Shown here one piece after another: positions 13,531-53,636 of a DNA stretch of 64,000 nt. Source of the DNA: Alphaproteobacteria bacterium (GTDB lineage Bacteria > Pseudomonadota > Alphaproteobacteria > MPNO01); assembly GCA_965248835.1 (NCBI GenBank), contig CBDFLJ010000002.1, positions 1,760,001 to 1,824,000 of the forward strand. The letters run 5' to 3'. The translations under genes and the position numbers were made by a program. Below the pieces are notes generated by a model that was given only the letters and a program-made list of their open reading frames with translations, was not told the DNA's origin and made no database searches. The number at the start of each line of letters is the position of its first letter. Positions within the stretch are counted from its first letter, which is position 1.

Positions 13531-13832
13531 CGGAGGTATCGGATAATCCTCACAAGGACGAACCTATTGTGCCGTTTCTGTGTTGCTCACGGGGCCAGTC
13601 TGTTCCTCCATCAGGATCATACAGATGTTCCAAGGCGAATTCCATTTCCCACTTCCGCGAATGCAACTATTCAGCGACACAGGATCCATCTGTGTTATTC
13701 GAATCGGCCCCATCCGCCCTTGACTGGGACCCTAAGCCATTGTAGTACCACTCTGATACAGGGAAAGACTACGACCCTACAATACTGTCAGAGTACCTTG
13801 AACCACGAATATTGGGTGCACACCTTAAGCAC

Positions 13833-28752: not shown

Positions 28753-29910
28753 ATGGATTTCGAGCTGCCCGAAGAGCTCCGGATGATGAAGGACACGCTG
28801 CGGCGCTTCATCGACACCGAGGTCATCCCGATCGAGCGCGAGGCCTATGACGGCCACGAGATGGTCCCCGAAATGCGCGACAAGCTGCAGGCCAGGGCCC
28901 GCGAGCTCGGCATCTGGATGATCGACGTGCCCGAGGAATATGGCGGCATGGGGCTCGGCCTGCTCGCCCGGGTGCTGGTCTGGGAGGAGACCGGGCGCAC
29001 CATCGCCTTCCCGCGACGCAAGCCGTGGATCTTCGGCCATGACGTCAGCCCGATCCTGCTTCAGTTCCTCCGCGAAGACCAGAAGGACAAGTATCTCTGG
29101 CCCTGCCTGCGCGGCGAGAAATATGCCGCCTTCGCCCAGACCGAACCCGATGCCGGCGGCGACCCGGCGAGCATGCGGACCACCGCCGAGCGCGACGGCG
29201 ATCACTATGTGATCAACGGCATGAAGCGGTTCATCACCGGAGCCGACAGGGCGGATTTCGCCCAGGTCGTCTGCGTGACCGACAAGGAAAAGGGTGCGCG
29301 CGGCGGCATCTCGTGCATCCTGGTCGACATGGACACACCGGGCGTCGAGGTCATTCGGCGCCAGGAGACGATGATGGACGACCTGCCCTGCGAGGTCGGC
29401 TTCCAGGACGTCCGCGTGCCGGTGGAAAACCTGATCGGCAACGAGGGCGACGGCTTCCGCATGGCGCAGAACTGGATCACCTTCGGCCGCATGCGCCACG
29501 GCGCCCTGGGACTGGGCACGATGGAACGCTCGCTCGAGCTCGCCGCGTCCTATGCCAAGCAGCGCGTGACCTTCGGCCAGCCGCTTGCCGAACGCCAGTC
29601 GGTGCAGTGGATGCTGGTCGACACCTATGCCGAGATGCACCAGCTCCGGCTGATGCTCTACGACGCCGCCGCGCGCTACGACAGCGGCCAGGACATCCGC
29701 TATCTGACCTACATGTGCAAGTATATCGGCGACCGGCTGGGCTTCACCGCCGCCGACCGCTGCATGCAGATCCACGGCGGCATCGGGCTGACCACCGATC
29801 TGCCGATCGAGAAGCTGTGGCGCGACACCCGCTCGTTCATGATCACCGAAGGCCCGGAGGACATCCTGAAGATGGCGCTCGCCCGCCAGGTGCTGCGCGA
29901 ATACGGTTGA
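28753..29910 (+). CDS. Acyl-CoA dehydrogenase
   Basis: FAQTEPDAGGD, NG.K.FIT, R.TFG, QIHGGIG and ITEG motifs. Confidence 0.93.
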   Translation: MDFELPEELRMMKDTLRRFIDTEVIPIEREAYDGHEMVPEMRDKLQARARELGIWMIDVPEEYGGMGLGLLARVLVWEETGRTIAFPRRKPWIFGHDVSPILLQFLREDQKDKYLWPCLRGEKYAAFAQTEPDAGGDPASMRTTAERDGDHYVINGMKRFITGADRADFAQVVCVTDKEKGARGGISCILVDMDTPGVEVIRRQETMMDDLPCEVGFQDVRVPVENLIGNEGDGFRMAQNWITFGRMRHGALGLGTMERSLELAASYAKQRVTFGQPLAERQSVQWMLVDTYAEMHQLRLMLYDAAARYDSGQDIRYLTYMCKYIGDRLGFTAADRCMQIHGGIGLTTDLPIEKLWRDTRSFMITEGPEDILKMALARQVLREYG

Positions 29911-30806
29911 GCCGGCCCGCCCCATCGGGCGGATCGGGCAATCTGCGCGCGATCGCGTTGATGCTGGTGGCGACGATCGCCTTCACCGTGATGCACGCCT
30001 CCATCCGCCAGGTCGCCCGGGACCTCCACCCGTTCGAGGTCGCATTCTTCCGCAACTTTTTCGGGCTGATCTTCCTTGCGCCCTATTTCTTCCGCTACGG
30101 AACGGCATCCCTGCGGACGGCGAACCTCAAGCTCCACAGCCTGCGCGCGGTCTTCAACCTGGCCTCGATGCTGTGTTTCTTCTACGCACTCACCATCGCA
30201 CCGTTCGCCGATGTGACGGCGCTGACCTTCACCGCGCCGATCTTCGCCAGCGCGCTTGCCGTGCCGATCCTGAAGGAGACCGTACGGCCGGTCCGCTGGG
30301 TGGCGATCGCGCTCGGCTTCCTGGGCGCGCTGGTCGTGCTGCGGCCGGGTCTGGGCACCGTCGGGTTGGGGCCGATCCTCGCGGTGAGCGCGGCGCTGAT
30401 CTGGGGCTTCGCCATGCTGGTGATCAAGACGCTGACCCGGACCGAGTCCTCCATCACGATCACCGCCTACATGATGATCTACCTGACGCCGATGTCGCTG
30501 GTCGCGGCAATCCCGTTCTGGACCTGGCCGTCGCTCGAGCAGTACGGGCTGCTGCTGTTCCTCGCGGTGCTGGGGACCACCGGTCACCTGTTCCTCAACC
30601 AGGCGCTCAAAGAAGGCGAGACGTCGGTCGTCGCCCCGGTCGATTTCGTCCGCCTGATCTGGGCCGCGGCGATCGGCTACCTGATCTTCGGCGAGTTCCC
30701 CGACACGCTGACCTGGATCGGCGGCGGCATGATCTGCGCCGGCGCCGCCCTGATCGCATACCGCGAGGGGCGGCGCGCCGGGCCGGGTGCTAAGATGCGC
30801 GATTGA
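29907..30806 (+). CDS. EamA/DMT-family transporter
   Basis: About 10 transmembrane helices; F.APIF...LKE...RW...GF.G.LVVLRP pattern. Start uncertain (29907 or 29961). Confidence 0.88.
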   Translation: MSRPAPSGGSGNLRAIALMLVATIAFTVMHASIRQVARDLHPFEVAFFRNFFGLIFLAPYFFRYGTASLRTANLKLHSLRAVFNLASMLCFFYALTIAPFADVTALTFTAPIFASALAVPILKETVRPVRWVAIALGFLGALVVLRPGLGTVGLGPILAVSAALIWGFAMLVIKTLTRTESSITITAYMMIYLTPMSLVAAIPFWTWPSLEQYGLLLFLAVLGTTGHLFLNQALKEGETSVVAPVDFVRLIWAAAIGYLIFGEFPDTLTWIGGGMICAGAALIAYREGRRAGPGAKMRD

Positions 30807-30847
30807 GACGGGGAGGGAGAGGTCATGGAAAACATCCGGATCGGCGA
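30790..30847 (+). repeat. 58-bp direct repeat, copy 1 (att-like)
   Basis: CTAAGATGCGCGATTGAGACGGGGAGGGAGAGGTCATGGAAAACATCCGGATCGGCGA; 56/58 identical to 34825-34882. Confidence 0.95.
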
Positions 30848-30954
30848 AATCGCGTAAGCCAAGCTGGGATTGTCCCTGCATCCACCGCAGCACGGACGCA
30901 AATGATGCAACCAACTTTTCCAGCGGCGGGTTGTCGGTTGGCCAGGGTTTGCCC

Positions 30955-31875
30955 GTGACCGGCAATAACACAAGGCACCGCCATGGACATGCCGGCGACA
31001 GGCACGGCAGCAACGTCCGGCGCATCTTTTGGGCTCTGCTGCTGACCGGCAGCTTCATGTTCGTCGAGGCGGTCGGCGGCGTGATCTCGGGATCCCTGGC
31101 GCTGCTTGCCGATGCCGCCCACATGCTTGTCGATACGGTGTCCCTGTTGTTTGCATGGATCGCCTTCAAGCTGAGCCGCCGCCCCGCCGACAAGGCACGC
31201 ACTTACGGCTATCACCGCTTTCCGGTTCTCGCCGCCTTCACCAACGGCATCAGCCTGATATTCATCGTCGGCTGGATTTTCATCGAGGCGGTCGGCCGGC
31301 TCATCGACCCGACCGAGGTGCTTGCGGCCCCGATGCTGGCTGTGGCGGGGCTGGGACTTGTCGTCAATGCCACCGCGTTCGTGGTGCTTCATGGAGCCGA
31401 CCGCAACAACCTCAATGTCCGCGGCGCCCTCTTGCACGTGCTGGGCGACATGCTCGGTTCGGTTGCCGCAGTCAGCGCGGCGCTGATCATCATGATGACC
31501 GGCTGGATGCCGATCGATCCGCTACTCTCGATCCTGGTCGGGCTGCTGGTGCTGCGCAGTGCCTGGTTTCTGGTGAAGGATGCGGCGCATGTGCTGCTCG
31601 AAGGCGTTCCCGGGCAATTGGACGTCCGCGAAATCGGTCCGGATCTGGTCTCGCATATCGCTGTCGTCGAGGATGTGCATCACGTGCACGCCTGGTCCTT
31701 GTCGCAAGACCGGTCATTGCTGACCCTGCACGCACGAATCATCGAGGGCGCCAACCCGGATTCGGCGGTTGCCGAGATTCGGTCACGCTTGGCGCAGCGT
31801 TTCGATATCAGCCACGTCACGGTGCAAATCGAGTTGGAAGGCTGCACCGACGATCCCGTCGCCGCGCTTGGGTGA
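30955..31875 (+). CDS. Cation diffusion facilitator (ZitB/CzcD-like)
   Basis: His-rich N-terminus; SGSLALLADAAHM..D, TYGY.R, NLN.RGA.LHV.GD and HH.H.W motifs. Start uncertain. Confidence 0.92.
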   Translation: MTGNNTRHRHGHAGDRHGSNVRRIFWALLLTGSFMFVEAVGGVISGSLALLADAAHMLVDTVSLLFAWIAFKLSRRPADKARTYGYHRFPVLAAFTNGISLIFIVGWIFIEAVGRLIDPTEVLAAPMLAVAGLGLVVNATAFVVLHGADRNNLNVRGALLHVLGDMLGSVAAVSAALIIMMTGWMPIDPLLSILVGLLVLRSAWFLVKDAAHVLLEGVPGQLDVREIGPDLVSHIAVVEDVHHVHAWSLSQDRSLLTLHARIIEGANPDSAVAEIRSRLAQRFDISHVTVQIELEGCTDDPVAALG

Positions 31876-31909
31876 ACACCGCGCCGTGGCGGAAGCCAGA
31901 GAGCGGAAT

Positions 31910-32713
31910 TCAGCGCGCGCTTCCCGCCGACCTGGGCCGTCGCATCCGGGTGATTATGAACAGCGCCAATGCAGCCACGACGATGGACGGACCCGACGGC
32001 GTGTCAAGCTTGGCAGAGGCGAGCAACCCCCCTGCGACCGCGACTGCGCCCGCCGCCGCCGCACCGGCGGCCATCTTCTCGGGGCTTGAGGCAAAGCGCC
32101 GGACTGTCGCCGCCGGTATGATCAGCAACGCGACGATCAGCAAAACCCCGACGATCTTGATGGCGGCGGCGATTACCGCCGCCACGAGGATCCCGAACAG
32201 CAGGCGCGCGCGCTCCGGCCGCAATCCCGCCACCGTGGCCAGATCGGCATTGACGGTCGCCGCCAGCAGCGGGCGCCAGATCCACCACAACACTCCCAGC
32301 GCGACCGCGCCGCCCACCCAGATCACAGCCAGATCGATGCGTGATACGGCGAGAATATCCCCGAAGAGCAGCGCCCGCAGGTCGAGCCGCATGTTGGGGA
32401 AGAAGGACAGGATGACGAGGCCGAGGGCGAGCCCGCCATGGGAGAGCAGGCCGAGCAAGGTGTCGGTCGGAAGCGTGTCGCGCCGTTCGAGATAGAACAT
32501 CACCAGCACGACCATGGAGGCGGTGACAAATATGCCTATCGCCAAGTGAAGGTCGATCAGAATGGAGATCGCAACGCCGAGCAGGGCCGAGTGCGCAATC
32601 GTCTCGCCAAAGTAGGCGAGCCGCCGCCAGATGATGAAACATCCCGCCGGTCCGGTGACGAATGCCAGCCCGATACCGGCGAGCAAGGCGCGCACCAGGA
32701 AATCGTCCAGCAT
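31910..32713 (-). CDS. znuB: Zinc ABC permease
   Basis: MLDDFLVRALLAG, WRR.AYFGE..AH.ALLG, LFGDIL and LLIIPAA motifs. Confidence 0.92.
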   Translation of the reverse strand: MLDDFLVRALLAGIGLAFVTGPAGCFIIWRRLAYFGETIAHSALLGVAISILIDLHLAIGIFVTASMVVLVMFYLERRDTLPTDTLLGLLSHGGLALGLVILSFFPNMRLDLRALLFGDILAVSRIDLAVIWVGGAVALGVLWWIWRPLLAATVNADLATVAGLRPERARLLFGILVAAVIAAAIKIVGVLLIVALLIIPAATVRRFASSPEKMAAGAAAAGAVAVAGGLLASAKLDTPSGPSIVVAALALFIITRMRRPRSAGSAR

Positions 32714-32716
32714 GGT

Positions 32717-33409
32717 TCAGCCCGACGACACGCCGCCGTGATGCCCGGTAGCGAGCGCAGAGCCGCCTGCGGCATGGGTCGGCTCGTCATGTTCGTGGGG
32801 CACCAGGACCACCAGATCGTCGCCGGTATACACGGCCTTTTCAATGTCATGGGAGATCAACAGGACACCGCAGTCGAGATCGCGGCGGATGTCTTCTATC
32901 AGTTCAAGGAGCACATCCGCTCCGGCGGTATCGACGCCCTGGGCCGGTTCGTCGAGGATCAGCAGATCGGGCCGGTGAATCAGTGCCCGAGCCAGCAGCA
33001 GCCGTTGGAGCTCGCCGCCCGACAGAGTCGTGACCGGCGGGTCGCCGAGTCGTTCCAGACCGACGGCGGAAAGTGCGGCGTCAATGTCGCGGGCAGCGAA
33101 ATGGCCGGTCAGCGTCATCAGACGGCGCAGGGTCAAGGGCAGCGTAGGGCTCACCGCCAATCGCTGCGGCACATAGCCCACCTCCAGCGACGGCGCCCGC
33201 TCGACCGTCCCCTCGTCGATGTCGATCAAGCCAACGACGGCCTTCGCACAGGTCGACTTGCCGGCGCCGTTGGCGCCGATCAGATAGACCAGCTCGCCGC
33301 GAACCACCTTGAGGTCGACATGACGGATGATCCAGCGTTCGCCGCGCCGCACGCCGATGTCGCGGGCGCTGACAAGCTGGCGGGAACCGCCGGGCTGCGC
33401 GTTTTCCAT
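32717..33409 (-). CDS. znuC: Zinc ABC ATPase
   Basis: GANGAGKST, GYVPQRL, LSGGE.QR.LLARAL and LDEP.QGVD motifs; His-rich tail. Confidence 0.9.
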   Translation of the reverse strand: MENAQPGGSRQLVSARDIGVRRGERWIIRHVDLKVVRGELVYLIGANGAGKSTCAKAVVGLIDIDEGTVERAPSLEVGYVPQRLAVSPTLPLTLRRLMTLTGHFAARDIDAALSAVGLERLGDPPVTTLSGGELQRLLLARALIHRPDLLILDEPAQGVDTAGADVLLELIEDIRRDLDCGVLLISHDIEKAVYTGDDLVVLVPHEHDEPTHAAGGSALATGHHGGVSSG

Positions 33410-33652
33410 GGTCACATCTTCTGCGGGAGCCGGCGCGCAGGATTCCATTGCGACGCAGCGCCCACACTTATCGCTGAACCGCGCCGCGTGGAAGAAACGC
33501 ACGCGGCAGCTTGCATGGCCATGGTTGTCCCAATTCGAACGCGGGGTAAAGTGATTATCAGGCCGGACGCTGTCACACGAGTCACCGTATGAACAGCGAG
33601 GCCGGACACGAGATCACCGTGACTATTCCCGCGCATTTATGGAGATACACCC

Positions 33653-34696
33653 ATGGGTCGTCCATCGCCGATGCTGCGACGCTTCCGTCTCGCGACCGCC
33701 GCGGCGGCGTTCTTCAACTGCGCGGTCGCCGGTCCTGCGGCAGCCGACGGCGCCGTTCGGGTCGCGGCCTCGATCAAGCCGGTGCATTCGCTGGTGAGCG
33801 CCGTGATGGCCGGCGTGGGCGAGCCTCGCCTGATCATGCGCGGCGCTACGTCACCGCATACCTTCAGCTTGCGTCCGTCCGACGCTGCCGCGCTTGAGGA
33901 TGCCGACGTCATCTTCCTGATCGACGAGTCAATAGAGACCTCCCTCGCCGGCCCGATCGACACGCTCGCCGGCAACGCCCGGGTGATCACGTTGTCCGAG
34001 GCGAAGGGCCTGGTCCGCAGGCCGTTCCGCGAGGGAGGAACGTTCGAGGCCCACGACCATGGCAACGACGATGACCACGGGCGCCATGAAGGCGAGGAGC
34101 ACGCCGGAGAGCGGCCGGCCGCGCACGGGGACGATGACCGCGACGCCGATGAGCACGCTGCGCTCAACATGCACATCTGGCTCGACCCGGTGAACGCCGG
34201 AGCGATGGCACGCATGATCACCGGCACTCTGTCCGAGGCCGACCCCGCCAATGCGGCGATGTATGCGGCCAATGCCCTGGTGCTCCTCCGCCGGTTGGAC
34301 GAACTGACTGCCCAGATCTCCGCGGAGGTGGCTTCGGTCCGCGGCAAGCCGTTCATCGTATTCCACGACGCCTACCGGCATTTCGAGGATCGCTTCGGCC
34401 TGACCGCCGCCGGCTCGGCCGTGGTCAGCCCGGAACGATCGCCCGGCATCCGGCGCATTCTGGAGCTCCGCGGCAAGGTGCGCGACCTCGGCGCGACCTG
34501 TGTGTTCGCCGAGCCCCAGTTCGAGCCGCGCCTGGTCAACACCATCATCGAAGGCACGCCGGCACGGGCCGGCACCGTCGATCCGTTGGGCGCCGCCATA
34601 GAGAGCGGACCCGAGTTGTACTTCACGCTCCTGCGCAACATGGCTGCATCGTTCAAGGACTGCTTGGTTTCGGCAGGTCGGGGGCGAAACGAATGA
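33653..34696 (+). CDS. znuA: Zinc ABC substrate-binding protein
   Basis: SIKPVHSLV, SPH...LRPSD, His/Asp-rich loop, H.WLDP, FHDAY and EPQF motifs. Confidence 0.93.
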   Translation: MGRPSPMLRRFRLATAAAAFFNCAVAGPAAADGAVRVAASIKPVHSLVSAVMAGVGEPRLIMRGATSPHTFSLRPSDAAALEDADVIFLIDESIETSLAGPIDTLAGNARVITLSEAKGLVRRPFREGGTFEAHDHGNDDDHGRHEGEEHAGERPAAHGDDDRDADEHAALNMHIWLDPVNAGAMARMITGTLSEADPANAAMYAANALVLLRRLDELTAQISAEVASVRGKPFIVFHDAYRHFEDRFGLTAAGSAVVSPERSPGIRRILELRGKVRDLGATCVFAEPQFEPRLVNTIIEGTPARAGTVDPLGAAIESGPELYFTLLRNMAASFKDCLVSAGRGRNE

Positions 34697-34824
34697 AGAA
34701 AAACCGAGCCGATGCGCATAACCGTATCCGAAGCCGTCCCGCTCCTTGCGGTGGAGGAAGCCCGCGCGGATACGCCGCTGATCTCACAAATGCAGGATGG
34801 GCTCCGGCGTAAAATGATTCCGTT

Positions 34825-34882
34825 CTAAGATGCGCGATTGAGACGGCGAGGGAGAGGTCATGGAGAACATCCGGATCGGCGA
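34825..34882 (+). repeat. 58-bp direct repeat, copy 2 (att-like)
   Basis: Contains the RBS and first codons (MENIRIG) of the MBL gene. Confidence 0.95.
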
Positions 34883-35735
34883 TGTCGAGGTCGCAAGCAT
34901 CATCGAGCGCACCGGACCGTGGCGGGATCCGACGGCGATGTTTCCGACCGCCGAGCGGGCGCTGATCGACCGGCATCTGGCCGAGATGCCCGACTACGTC
35001 TACGACGCGGTGCAGGATCTCCTGGTGATCACCTATCAGACCTTCGTCCTGCGCACGGGGCGGCACACCATCCTGATCGATACCTGCGTCGGCGAGGACA
35101 AACCGGCCCGCGGCCCGAAGCTCGACTATCCCAAGAAACCCTGGCTCGACGGGTTTTCGGCGCTCGGGCTGCGCTTCGAGGACATCGACTATGTCTTTTG
35201 CACCCACCTGCATGTCGATCACTGCGGCTGGAACACGCGCCTGGTCGACGGGCGCTGGGTGCCGACCTTCCCCAAGGCCAGATACGTCTTCAGCCGGCGG
35301 GAATACGAATTCTGGGAGGCCGAGACCGCCAAGGGAAGCGATCCGCCGGGCGAGGTGTGGCGCGATTCGTGCCTGCCGGTGCTCGAGGCCGGCCAGGCGC
35401 TCCTGGTCGATGACGACTACGCGCTCGACGACAGCATCTGGCTGACACCCACGCCCGGCCATTCACCGGGCCATGTCTGCGTCAACGTCAAGTCGGGCGC
35501 GGCAAGGGCGATCTTCACCGGCGACCTGATGCACCACGCGCTGCAGTGCCGCGAGCCGCACTGGTGCTCATGCTTCTGCTACGACGAGGCGGGCTCGACC
35601 GCCTCGCGGCGCAAGATCCTCGAGGCGGTGGCCGATACCGACACGCTGGTCATGCCGTGCCACTTCCCCGGTCCGACCGGCGGGCACGTGCGCACCCAGG
35701 GCGCTGCGTTCCGCTACGCGTTCCTCGATGGTTGA
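34860..35735 (+). CDS. Metallo-beta-lactamase-fold hydrolase
   Basis: THLHVDHCGWN, TPGHSPGH, GDLMH and HFP motifs. Confidence 0.92.
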   Translation: MENIRIGDVEVASIIERTGPWRDPTAMFPTAERALIDRHLAEMPDYVYDAVQDLLVITYQTFVLRTGRHTILIDTCVGEDKPARGPKLDYPKKPWLDGFSALGLRFEDIDYVFCTHLHVDHCGWNTRLVDGRWVPTFPKARYVFSRREYEFWEAETAKGSDPPGEVWRDSCLPVLEAGQALLVDDDYALDDSIWLTPTPGHSPGHVCVNVKSGAARAIFTGDLMHHALQCREPHWCSCFCYDEAGSTASRRKILEAVADTDTLVMPCHFPGPTGGHVRTQGAAFRYAFLDG

Positions 35736-35797
35736 GCGCGGCGCCGGTTGGCACACGAGATAGAACGAAGTTGGTTGACCAGGAATTGACCCCGCTC

Positions 35798-36199
35798 ATG
35801 GCGGTTGATCCACGCGACGGCCCGCCGGTTCCGCCGACGCTTTTCCACATCTGCCGGCGTCAGGATTGGCACGCCGCTGCGGACAGCGGCCGGTACGGCG
35901 GCACGGCGGTCGACCGCCGCGACGGGTTCATCCATTTCTCGACCGCGGCACAGCTTCCGGGCACCGCCGCGCGCCACTTCGCCGGCATGGACGGGCTGAT
36001 CGTCCTGGAGGTCCGCAGCGCGGCACTCGCCCCTGCGCTCAAGTGGGAACCCGCACCGAACGGGACCCTTTTCCCGCACCATTACGGCGCGATCGCGGCA
36101 AGCTGGGTGGTCGCGGTCCACCGGCTCGAATGCGGCGCCGACGGCGCGCATCGCTGCGAATTTCTCGTGCCCGAGAGCGCTCGGGACAGGGCGGAATAG
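35798..36199 (+). CDS. DUF952 family protein
   Basis: D..DGFIHFST..Q...TA..HF and LKWE......FPH.YG motifs. Confidence 0.85.
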   Translation: MAVDPRDGPPVPPTLFHICRRQDWHAAADSGRYGGTAVDRRDGFIHFSTAAQLPGTAARHFAGMDGLIVLEVRSAALAPALKWEPAPNGTLFPHHYGAIAASWVVAVHRLECGADGAHRCEFLVPESARDRAE

Positions 36200-36393
36200 A
36201 GGCGAATGTCCGTCGATCGGGCCGGGCTTGCGGTGGTCCCCGCGACCATGCCGGCGGCCAAATTTAGCGGCATCCAAGCCGCGCTGCGATGCAATCATCT
36301 TCGGCCGGACCGGGCATGGACGTGCGCCCGGCGGTGTGGCCGGTAGGCCGGATTTGGGCGTAAGAACAGAATGATAGCGACAGGAGGCATATC

Positions 36394-53305: not shown

Positions 53306-53636
53306 TGAGCGTGCTGTCCGCCCCTCCCCGCCTGGAAGACAACCACTGGGTCATCGTCGGCAGGAACCCCGCGCGCATCTCACCGACCTCCAGAAGCCCT
53401 GGCGCCGCATCCGGGCCCGGGCCGGGCTCGACGACGCGCGAATCCATGACCTTCGTCACAGCTTTGCGTCCAGGGTCTTGGCCCTTGGCGAAAGTTTGCC
53501 GATGATCGGCAAGTTGCTCGGCCACACCCAGGTGCAGACAACCGCGCGGTACGCGCACCTCGCAAACGAGTCCGTGAAGGCATCCGGCTCACGCGTGGGC
53601 GACAGCATCGGCCTTCACATCGCTGGCGACGGATAA
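53306..53636 (+). pseudogene. Tyrosine integrase C-terminal fragment
   Basis: W.RIR..AGL.D.RIHDLRHSFAS, IGKLLGH.Q.QTT.RYAHL motifs; N-terminal part absent. Confidence 0.85.

Follow-up and report, generated by a model that had tools for sequence, protein, structure and literature searches.

A predicted zinc uptake and efflux gene cluster inserted at a gene junction with a 58-bp target duplication in an alphaproteobacterial genome

We analysed a window of 64,000 nt from an alphaproteobacterium (assembly GCA_965248835.1, contig CBDFLJ010000002.1, positions 1,760,001 to 1,824,000 of the forward strand). Positions given without a contig label are those of this window, and the source genome is called G000. 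We found a 3,977-bp segment with zinc transport genes (30848..34824) between an EamA/DMT transporter gene (29907..30806, plus strand) and a metallo-β-lactamase (MBL)-fold hydrolase gene (34860..35735, plus strand). The segment is bracketed by two direct copies of a 58-bp sequence (30790..30847 and 34825..34882, both plus strand), and it is absent from the DMT-MBL junction of related genomes. Because both copies align to the single junction found in these relatives, the zinc segment has truly been inserted, and 58 bp of the target were duplicated.

The DMT gene (Pfam EamA, E-value 3.4e-39) has orthologues located after an ACAD gene in relatives. Its start is uncertain, being either TTG at 29907, which overlaps the ACAD stop codon, or ATG at 29961. 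The stop codon, TGA at 30804-30806, sits within the left repeat copy. The MBL gene is intact, encodes an HLHVDH motif (Pfam Lactamase_B, 1.3e-18), and its product is 62-86% identical to the orthologues adjoining DMT in relatives. The 58-bp repeat contains the last five DMT codons with the TGA, an 18-nt spacer with the ribosome-binding stretch GGAGGGAGAGG, and 7 2/3 codons of MBL encoding MENIRIG. The two joints are thus located 15 nt ahead of the DMT stop and 23 nt inside MBL. In the left copy, the DMT tail and stop codon and the ribosome-binding spacer are followed by a dead copy of the MBL start, while the right copy contains a dead DMT tail, the ribosome-binding site and the live MBL start (ATG at 34860). 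Identity between the copies ends sharply at both outer edges.

Direct reading of the sequence bore out what an earlier note on this DNA had claimed of the repeat, that is, its gene content, the 56/58 identity of the copies, their start-to-start distance of 4035 bp and two mismatches. One mismatch (30812 G versus 34847 C) is in the intergenic spacer and the other (30830 A versus 34865 G) is a synonymous GAA/GAG difference, and the longest unbroken identity is 22 bp. The dead stub MENIRIGEIA* of the earlier note also exists, as an open reading frame (ORF) in which the duplicated MBL start runs into the insert (30825..30857, plus strand); only its start had to be corrected slightly, to 30825. A search of the window that tolerated three mismatches at most detected the 58-mer twice, and 100 dinucleotide shuffles yielded no match. 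In the whole genome (4,892,227 bp in two contigs), the 58-mer is found at these two places only.

The insert is predicted from its domains to be a cluster of a ZnuABC zinc importer and a CDF exporter. A CzcD/ZitB-like CDF gene for divalent-cation efflux comes first (30955..31875, plus strand; Pfam Cation_efflux 8.3e-44 and ZT_dimer 1.1e-07); its start is probably GTG at 30955 or TTG at 30949, and the N-terminus of the protein is histidine-rich. It is followed on the minus strand by a znuB-like ABC-3 permease gene (31910..32713; ABC-3 3.6e-66) and a znuC-like ABC ATPase gene (32717..33502; ABC_tran 2.6e-25), the start of which may be internal. The znuA gene (33653..34696, plus strand; ZnuA 4.9e-61) encodes a periplasmic zinc-binding protein with a His/Asp-rich loop. 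All four domains (ZnuA, ABC-3, ABC ATPase and Cation_efflux/ZT_dimer) are in intact reading frames. Non-coding DNA in the insert amounts only to stretches of about 107, 34, 150 and 128 bp, the about 107 bp preceding the CDF gene and the 128 bp following znuA. A simple scan detected no Zur-box-like palindrome in the spacers, including the one between znuC and znuA. The G+C content of the insert (0.62-0.69) equals that of the flanks.

At the right end of the insert, a 38-codon ORF (34712..34828, plus strand) terminates at a TAA within the right repeat. In tblastn searches against the genome and the fetched loci, it has neither a paralogue nor a credible homologue, and a phmmer search against 1.84 billion proteins returned one match, a repetitive retroelement-like protein. 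We rejected the idea that this ORF is a truncated gene, since there was no paralogue or locus match and the lone phmmer match was judged to be due to chance; it is probably a chance ORF.

We found no genes for mobility in the insert. It contains no tRNA, no Rfam family and, in Pfam searches, no transposase, and a genome-wide profile search placed no tyrosine (PF00589) or serine (PF00239) recombinase inside it. The absence of an integrase, transposase or tRNA, which the earlier note had read from the letters, is thus upheld by these searches. All of the 26 PF00589 and three PF00239 matches in the genome are outside the insert. The closest PF00589 matches are a partial one at 53376-53567, 18.5 kb downstream of the right repeat, which covers profile positions 106-170 only, and another about 41 kb upstream. 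At the insert ends, neither an inverted repeat nor a direct repeat was better than chance (71/500 and 427/500 shuffles, respectively, did as well). A simple palindrome scan revealed no dyad in the 58-bp site, and folding of either copy as DNA, whether or not its flanks were included, gave nothing special (z 0.06 to 0.86) and no hairpin. A DNA transposon or insertion sequence was rejected on the lack of terminal inverted repeats beyond those in shuffles, the lack of a transposase and the 58-bp length of the duplication. An integron cassette with attC was rejected on the lack of a hairpin fold. As a separate observation made post hoc, the first insert bases, AATCGCG at 30848-30854, are the reverse complement of CGCGATT at 30798-30804 in the repeat, a match for which we estimate a chance of a few percent.

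A search of 40 related genomes with window positions 29900-36200 placed DMT and MBL matches on one contig, 15-44 bp apart, in 13 genomes, namely G005 (genus g4) and the entire set of 12 from genus g6. For nine of these 13, tblastn on fetched loci verified the order ACAD-DMT-MBL. The finding of contiguous DMT and MBL genes agrees with the insertion at a gene junction that the earlier note had proposed. In an alignment of eight of the empty sites with both copies, the left copy runs leftwards into the 3' end of the relatives' DMT, the right copy runs rightwards into their MBL, and each relative has a single junction. In the closest relative, G002 of the same genus, a DMT tail is joined to the junction and MBL without the zinc cluster. 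This genome has lost most of DMT, leaving 532 non-coding bp after ACAD (L023 8119-8650).

The base of the right copy is present at both mismatch sites in G002. The two substitutions therefore plausibly arose in the non-functional part of the left copy, as judged from this single outgroup. The two mismatches could alternatively be differences between a donor and a recipient. If a circle carrying the cluster together with a copy of the DMT/MBL junction had entered by one RecA-dependent crossover at the empty site, direct repeats would likewise bracket the insert and both genes would stay intact, and the product of such a Campbell-type insertion-duplication has the same geometry, with an insert between direct target copies. 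The circle could have been excised from a strain already bearing the insertion, and this would then describe the spread of the segment and not the original event. We consider this rather unlikely. The circle must already carry the 58 bp, so that the origin of the duplication is merely moved to another strain, and the same arrangement was not found in the 40 relatives, the genome_contigs loci examined or metagenome_contigs. With 22 bp, the longest perfect identity does not exceed the minimum that RecA pathways need for efficiency. The location of both substitutions in the dead part of the left copy, with the right copy equal to G002, fits drift after duplication.

The assembly itself was considered as a source of the arrangement, as it consists of two contigs with 9.5% estimated contamination, and a misjoin at a short repeat might produce such a picture. 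The stretch is covered by contigs of four public runs (X1 to X4), which come from one sample and one study and are possibly the source of the assembly. Both junctions are crossed, with 0-1 differences, by contigs of these runs, which come from another assembler: the left one by X1 record 2 (30759-31140) and X4 record 24 (30400-31146), and the right one by X1 record 8 (34743-35244) and X4 record 31 (34492-35093). The contig depth in X1 is even, at 16.6-20.5 inside the insert versus 18.8 and 20.1 outside, and the two repeat copies differ at two positions. A misassembly is therefore very improbable, even with runs from a single sample, and the view of the earlier note that this is not an assembly repeat is borne out. 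A joint from 30847 to 34883, the 4,035-bp skip of an empty site, was not among the 15 joints listed of 21, these being joints of contigs, with rare variants possible. A circle joint was also not among the contig joints listed, the uncovered parts being uninformative.

The earlier note had suggested an att-type integration, in which the 58-bp copies would be attL and attR of a decayed element, or of one resembling the cis-mobilizable elements (CIMEs), with the integrase encoded elsewhere. CIMEs and decayed islands are att-flanked elements without an integrase of their own. The zinc segment resembles CIMEs in having direct repeats on either side of accessory genes and in lacking a recombinase of its own. 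The length of the repeat falls in the range known for att identity segments, and the genome contains the 26 tyrosine-recombinase matches as well as tRNA-end repeats around islands. On the other hand, there is no integrase inside or adjacent to the insert, the nearest being 18.5 kb and about 41 kb away, and the site lacks a third copy in the genome and has no dyad or hairpin. In contrast to CIMEs, no related integrase-bearing element and no reuse of the site were found, and the target is neither a tRNA nor a known att gene end. In addition, no repeat-flanked cargo was found at the junction in the relatives examined, and the same cluster occurs in five genomes without flanking repeats. The suggestion of att recombination is thus not sustained, and we regard it as unlikely. 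The same termini around other cargo, which the earlier note had proposed to look for, were found neither elsewhere in the genome nor at the junction of the relatives examined.

We also investigated the variation of the locus in relatives. G006 (L118 4886-15130) has DMT twice in tandem, and its DMT and MBL are separated by 8.5 kb of other genes, one of them for an rve_3 transposase. An amidohydrolase gene lies between DMT and MBL in three examined genomes of family f4, and G008 has 3.3 kb at the locus without DMT. No junction repeat was found at these variant loci, a search that covered part of the 40 relatives, and none was found around other cargo in G006, G026, G029 and G032. The tandem DMT copies of G006 and the DMT loss in G002 indicate that the locus is prone to rearrangement in the family. 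This lends some credit to a multi-step path, in which a tandem duplication of DMT-MBL was followed by deletions or homologous replacement that left 58 bp around the captured DNA. A multi-step alternative pathway for rRNA operons is discussed in Lim et al. 2012 (PMC3457768). Such a path would need at least three events, with end points that happened to spare both genes. However, no remnants of a larger duplication are seen, the outer edges of identity are sharp, and the cluster is not adjacent to the locus in any relative. We find the multi-step path quite unlikely.

The footprint corresponds to that of a class known as insertion with long target duplication (ILTD), which was reportedly first described in 2000 by Nobusato et al. 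(Gene 259:99) and is known mostly from restriction-modification gene complexes. Furuta, Abe and Kobayashi 2010 (NAR 38:2428, PMC2853133) define an ILTD as an insert shorter than 20 kb with a target duplication longer than 30 bp, without another mobile element and with repeats that align with the empty site. The repeats listed there are 46-423 bp long and often cover a start or stop codon, so that the target gene survives, and double-strand breakage by the restriction-modification (RM) cargo is suggested as a common cause. The zinc insertion, with 3,977 bp and no mobile-element genes, has a 58-bp repeat (56/58) that is unique in the genome and is not a tRNA, and one copy of this repeat is present at the empty site of relatives (13/40 genomes, eight of them aligned). 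It contains no RM genes, the presence of which is a criterion of the screen by Furuta et al. and not of the footprint.

Judged from these sequence features, the zinc insertion is an ILTD footprint, that is, a known class with an unusual cargo. The earlier note had thought of an undescribed element, which is not supported, as the footprint fits the published class. The recombinase-free footprint is nevertheless real and rare. Like the ILTDs of RM complexes, the insert is shorter than 20 kb and lacks a mobility gene, and its unique repeat has one counterpart at the empty site of a related genome. This repeat includes both a stop and a start codon, so that the neighbours in the operon-like target remain intact. 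Unlike these ILTDs, its cargo is for zinc uptake and efflux and includes neither a nuclease nor a methyltransferase. A break made by the cargo therefore cannot trigger the zinc insertion. The host has a high-G+C genome in which no Ku was found. An ILTD with a cargo other than RM genes is not unprecedented, because Lim et al. (PMC3457768) refer to the mechanism as recognised in RM systems 'and other DNAs'. Among the titles listed in a literature search on long target duplication, none dealt with metal-transport cargo.

We investigated the distribution of the zinc cluster. ZnuB of the cassette type (81-86% identity) occurs in G000 and in five of the 12 g6 genomes, and in none of the seven genomes of genera g1-g5, in which there is only a 49-52% paralogue or nothing. 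The cluster is missing from both other genomes of the genus, G001 and G002; G000 and G002 share a second, distant znu locus, which is the paralogue. In the five g6 genomes (G007, G010, G014, G015 and G018), the homologous cluster is located elsewhere, at one syntenic locus downstream of clpB. Homology of the clpB locus to the window extends from about 30923-30975 to about 34665, and no direct repeats flank the clusters of these five genomes. The genes on the right flank of the clpB locus in g6 are not conserved next to clpB in G000. The zinc cluster is not a neighbour of the ACAD-DMT-MBL locus in any relative, and the right end (34690-34830) has no homologue in 19 other genomes of the family. 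As a side observation, znuB is split in two in G007 (C1:1669890-1670601), and the matched znuB stretch includes one in-frame TGA in G010 (C12:329141-329938) and in G014 (C1:2961885-2962676). The zinc cluster may be decaying in some relatives.

In protein identity, the cluster is about equally close to those of metagenome-assembled genomes (MAGs) labelled Halieaceae, Arenicellales, Binatia and Syntrophobacterales as to those of its own family. Its closest relatives (loci L038-L045 and L051) have ZnuB with 78-85% and ZnuC with 74-82% identity. The MAGs holding these closest clusters are labelled Gammaproteobacteria, Binatota and Thermodesulfobacteriota, and several are sponge-named bins, which suggests either cross-phylum transfer or binning error. 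In a tree of ZnuA, ZnuB and ZnuC with 22 rows, from which G007 was excluded because one of its high-scoring segment pairs covered less than 80% of the query, G000 pairs with a Halieaceae-labelled MAG with an SH-aLRT support of 84, below the mark of 95, and no branch around G000 reaches 95. We found no closer cluster in genome_contigs (best ZnuA 70%) or in metagenome_contigs (best ZnuA 58%). Neither DMT nor MBL adjoins ZnuA in the 14 of 80 genome_contigs loci examined, and the exact 22-mer had no match in metagenome_contigs. A plasmid origin was rejected, the best plasmid match being 68% over 42% of the insert. Overall, the cluster is accessory and was probably acquired horizontally.

We favour, with moderate confidence, a single illegitimate, recombinase-free insertion of the ILTD type that brought the zinc cluster into the ancestral operon. 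A segment of about 4 kb with the CDF exporter gene, znuCB and znuA, along with their own control regions, would have entered an ancestral ACAD-DMT-MBL operon. Opening or switching of the two target strands would have occurred at points 58 bp from each other, and the sequence in between would have been copied to both sides. DMT would thereby have kept its stop codon, and MBL its ribosome-binding site and start. The two substitutions would have accrued later in the useless part of the left copy. Such an insertion would most likely be accomplished in a single step, either by gap filling at a staggered break or by template switching in replication. After the event, the znuCB genes, with their opposite orientation, would isolate MBL and the DUF952 gene (MBL-DUF952) from the ACAD-DMT promoter, and MBL-DUF952 are probably read from the znuA promoter.

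Two delivery or joining routes were rejected. Capture by Ku-dependent non-homologous end joining was judged unlikely for lack of a PF02735 match in the genome, the control in B. subtilis being positive. A fragment of about 4 kb delivered by a gene transfer agent, considered in view of the 4,035 bp of the insert plus one repeat, was dropped for lack of a GTA_TIM (PF13547) match, the control in Caulobacter being positive.

Several points weigh against a single illegitimate insertion. Both ends of the insert are non-coding and no gene shows a visible break, as would also be the case for a defined mobile unit, and a Campbell-type crossover of a junction-bearing circle leaves the same footprint. 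The absence of Ku from the genome makes classical end-joining capture unlikely. The donor sequence was not found, so that microhomology at the junctions is unreadable, and the tree does not settle between horizontal transfer and relocation, with the G+C content the same as in the flanks. Finally, in X2 and X3 a 1,078-bp contig stops exactly at 30847 and the next begins at 30818, while the X1 and X4 contigs run through; this break may reflect a rare variant at the insert boundary that causes a branch in the assembly graph.

We also compared the genome with itself and obtained 43 direct-repeat pairs of 30-400 bp at distances of 0.4-25 kb. One of them is a second ILTD in G000, at C1:2011689-2013998 (locus L212 2190-4499). 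Its 86-bp repeat (copies at 2011689-2011774 and 2013913-2013998, 95% identity) consists of the 3' end and stop codon of an SDR gene and encloses a 2.1-kb insert with a truncated higB (Pfam positions 23-91 of 91), a HigA-like helix-turn-helix gene, an ankyrin-repeat gene and an inverted higB-like fragment. G002 and G005 show its empty site; the two flanks share an overlap of 91 bp in G002 and abut in G005. The higBA piece is found at different loci in G002, G005 and G007. Like the zinc insert, this insert is recombinase-free, lies right after a stop codon and has an empty site; unlike the zinc insert, it carries an addiction module among its cargo, as do the published cases. Thus, this lineage has had at least two ILTD events, one that involved an addiction module and one that did not.

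Other repeats were noted in passing. A third candidate (C2:666414-668502; L211 2415-4503) has 49-bp repeats (93.9%) around a manC-like gene (NTP_transferase and MannoseP_isomer domains), and its region has no DNA match in G002, G005 and G007. At C2:1071572-1079101 (L126 5573-13102), a 357-bp repeat (96.9%) of the 5' part of a UDP-GlcNAc 2-epimerase gene surrounds 7.2 kb with genes for a DDE transposase, a phage-lysozyme-domain protein and a B12-binding-domain protein, and a 211-bp repeat pair lies beside it. A 47-bp exact repeat with similar flanks occurs at window positions 13600-13646 (C2:1773600) and, 21.6 kb away, at C2:1751968, where it adjoins a tyrosine-recombinase match (C2:1748859-1749278); the initial 13.6 kb of the window are possibly part of an integrated island. 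Exact 46-bp tRNA 3'-end repeats are located 19.6 kb apart at C2:500296-500341 and C2:519910-519955, with tyrosine-recombinase matches nearby (C2:498513 and C2:519366). They belong to ordinary islands that target tRNAs, in contrast to the zinc insert.

ILTD has mainly been explained by breaks that restriction enzymes of the cargo introduce, and the zinc operon shows that the footprint needs no nuclease encoded by the cargo. A nuclease-free cargo therefore points to a host process, such as template switching or staggered-break repair, and the second, independent event in G000 supports this view. We tentatively raise the possibility that ILTD is a cargo-independent, host-driven pathway that has been repeatedly active in this lineage, as seen in the 58-bp and 86-bp events in a genome without Ku. 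If this is true, recombinase-free insertion at gene ends would be a general way of relocating or acquiring whole operons, and the flanking repeats would make such gains reversible or amplifiable. Duplicated gene junctions could be used in annotation as a marker of recombinase-free gene gain. For this bacterium, an accessory metal cluster has been wired into an existing operon without damage, and a zinc-dependent MBL-fold gene now lies directly 3' of znuA.

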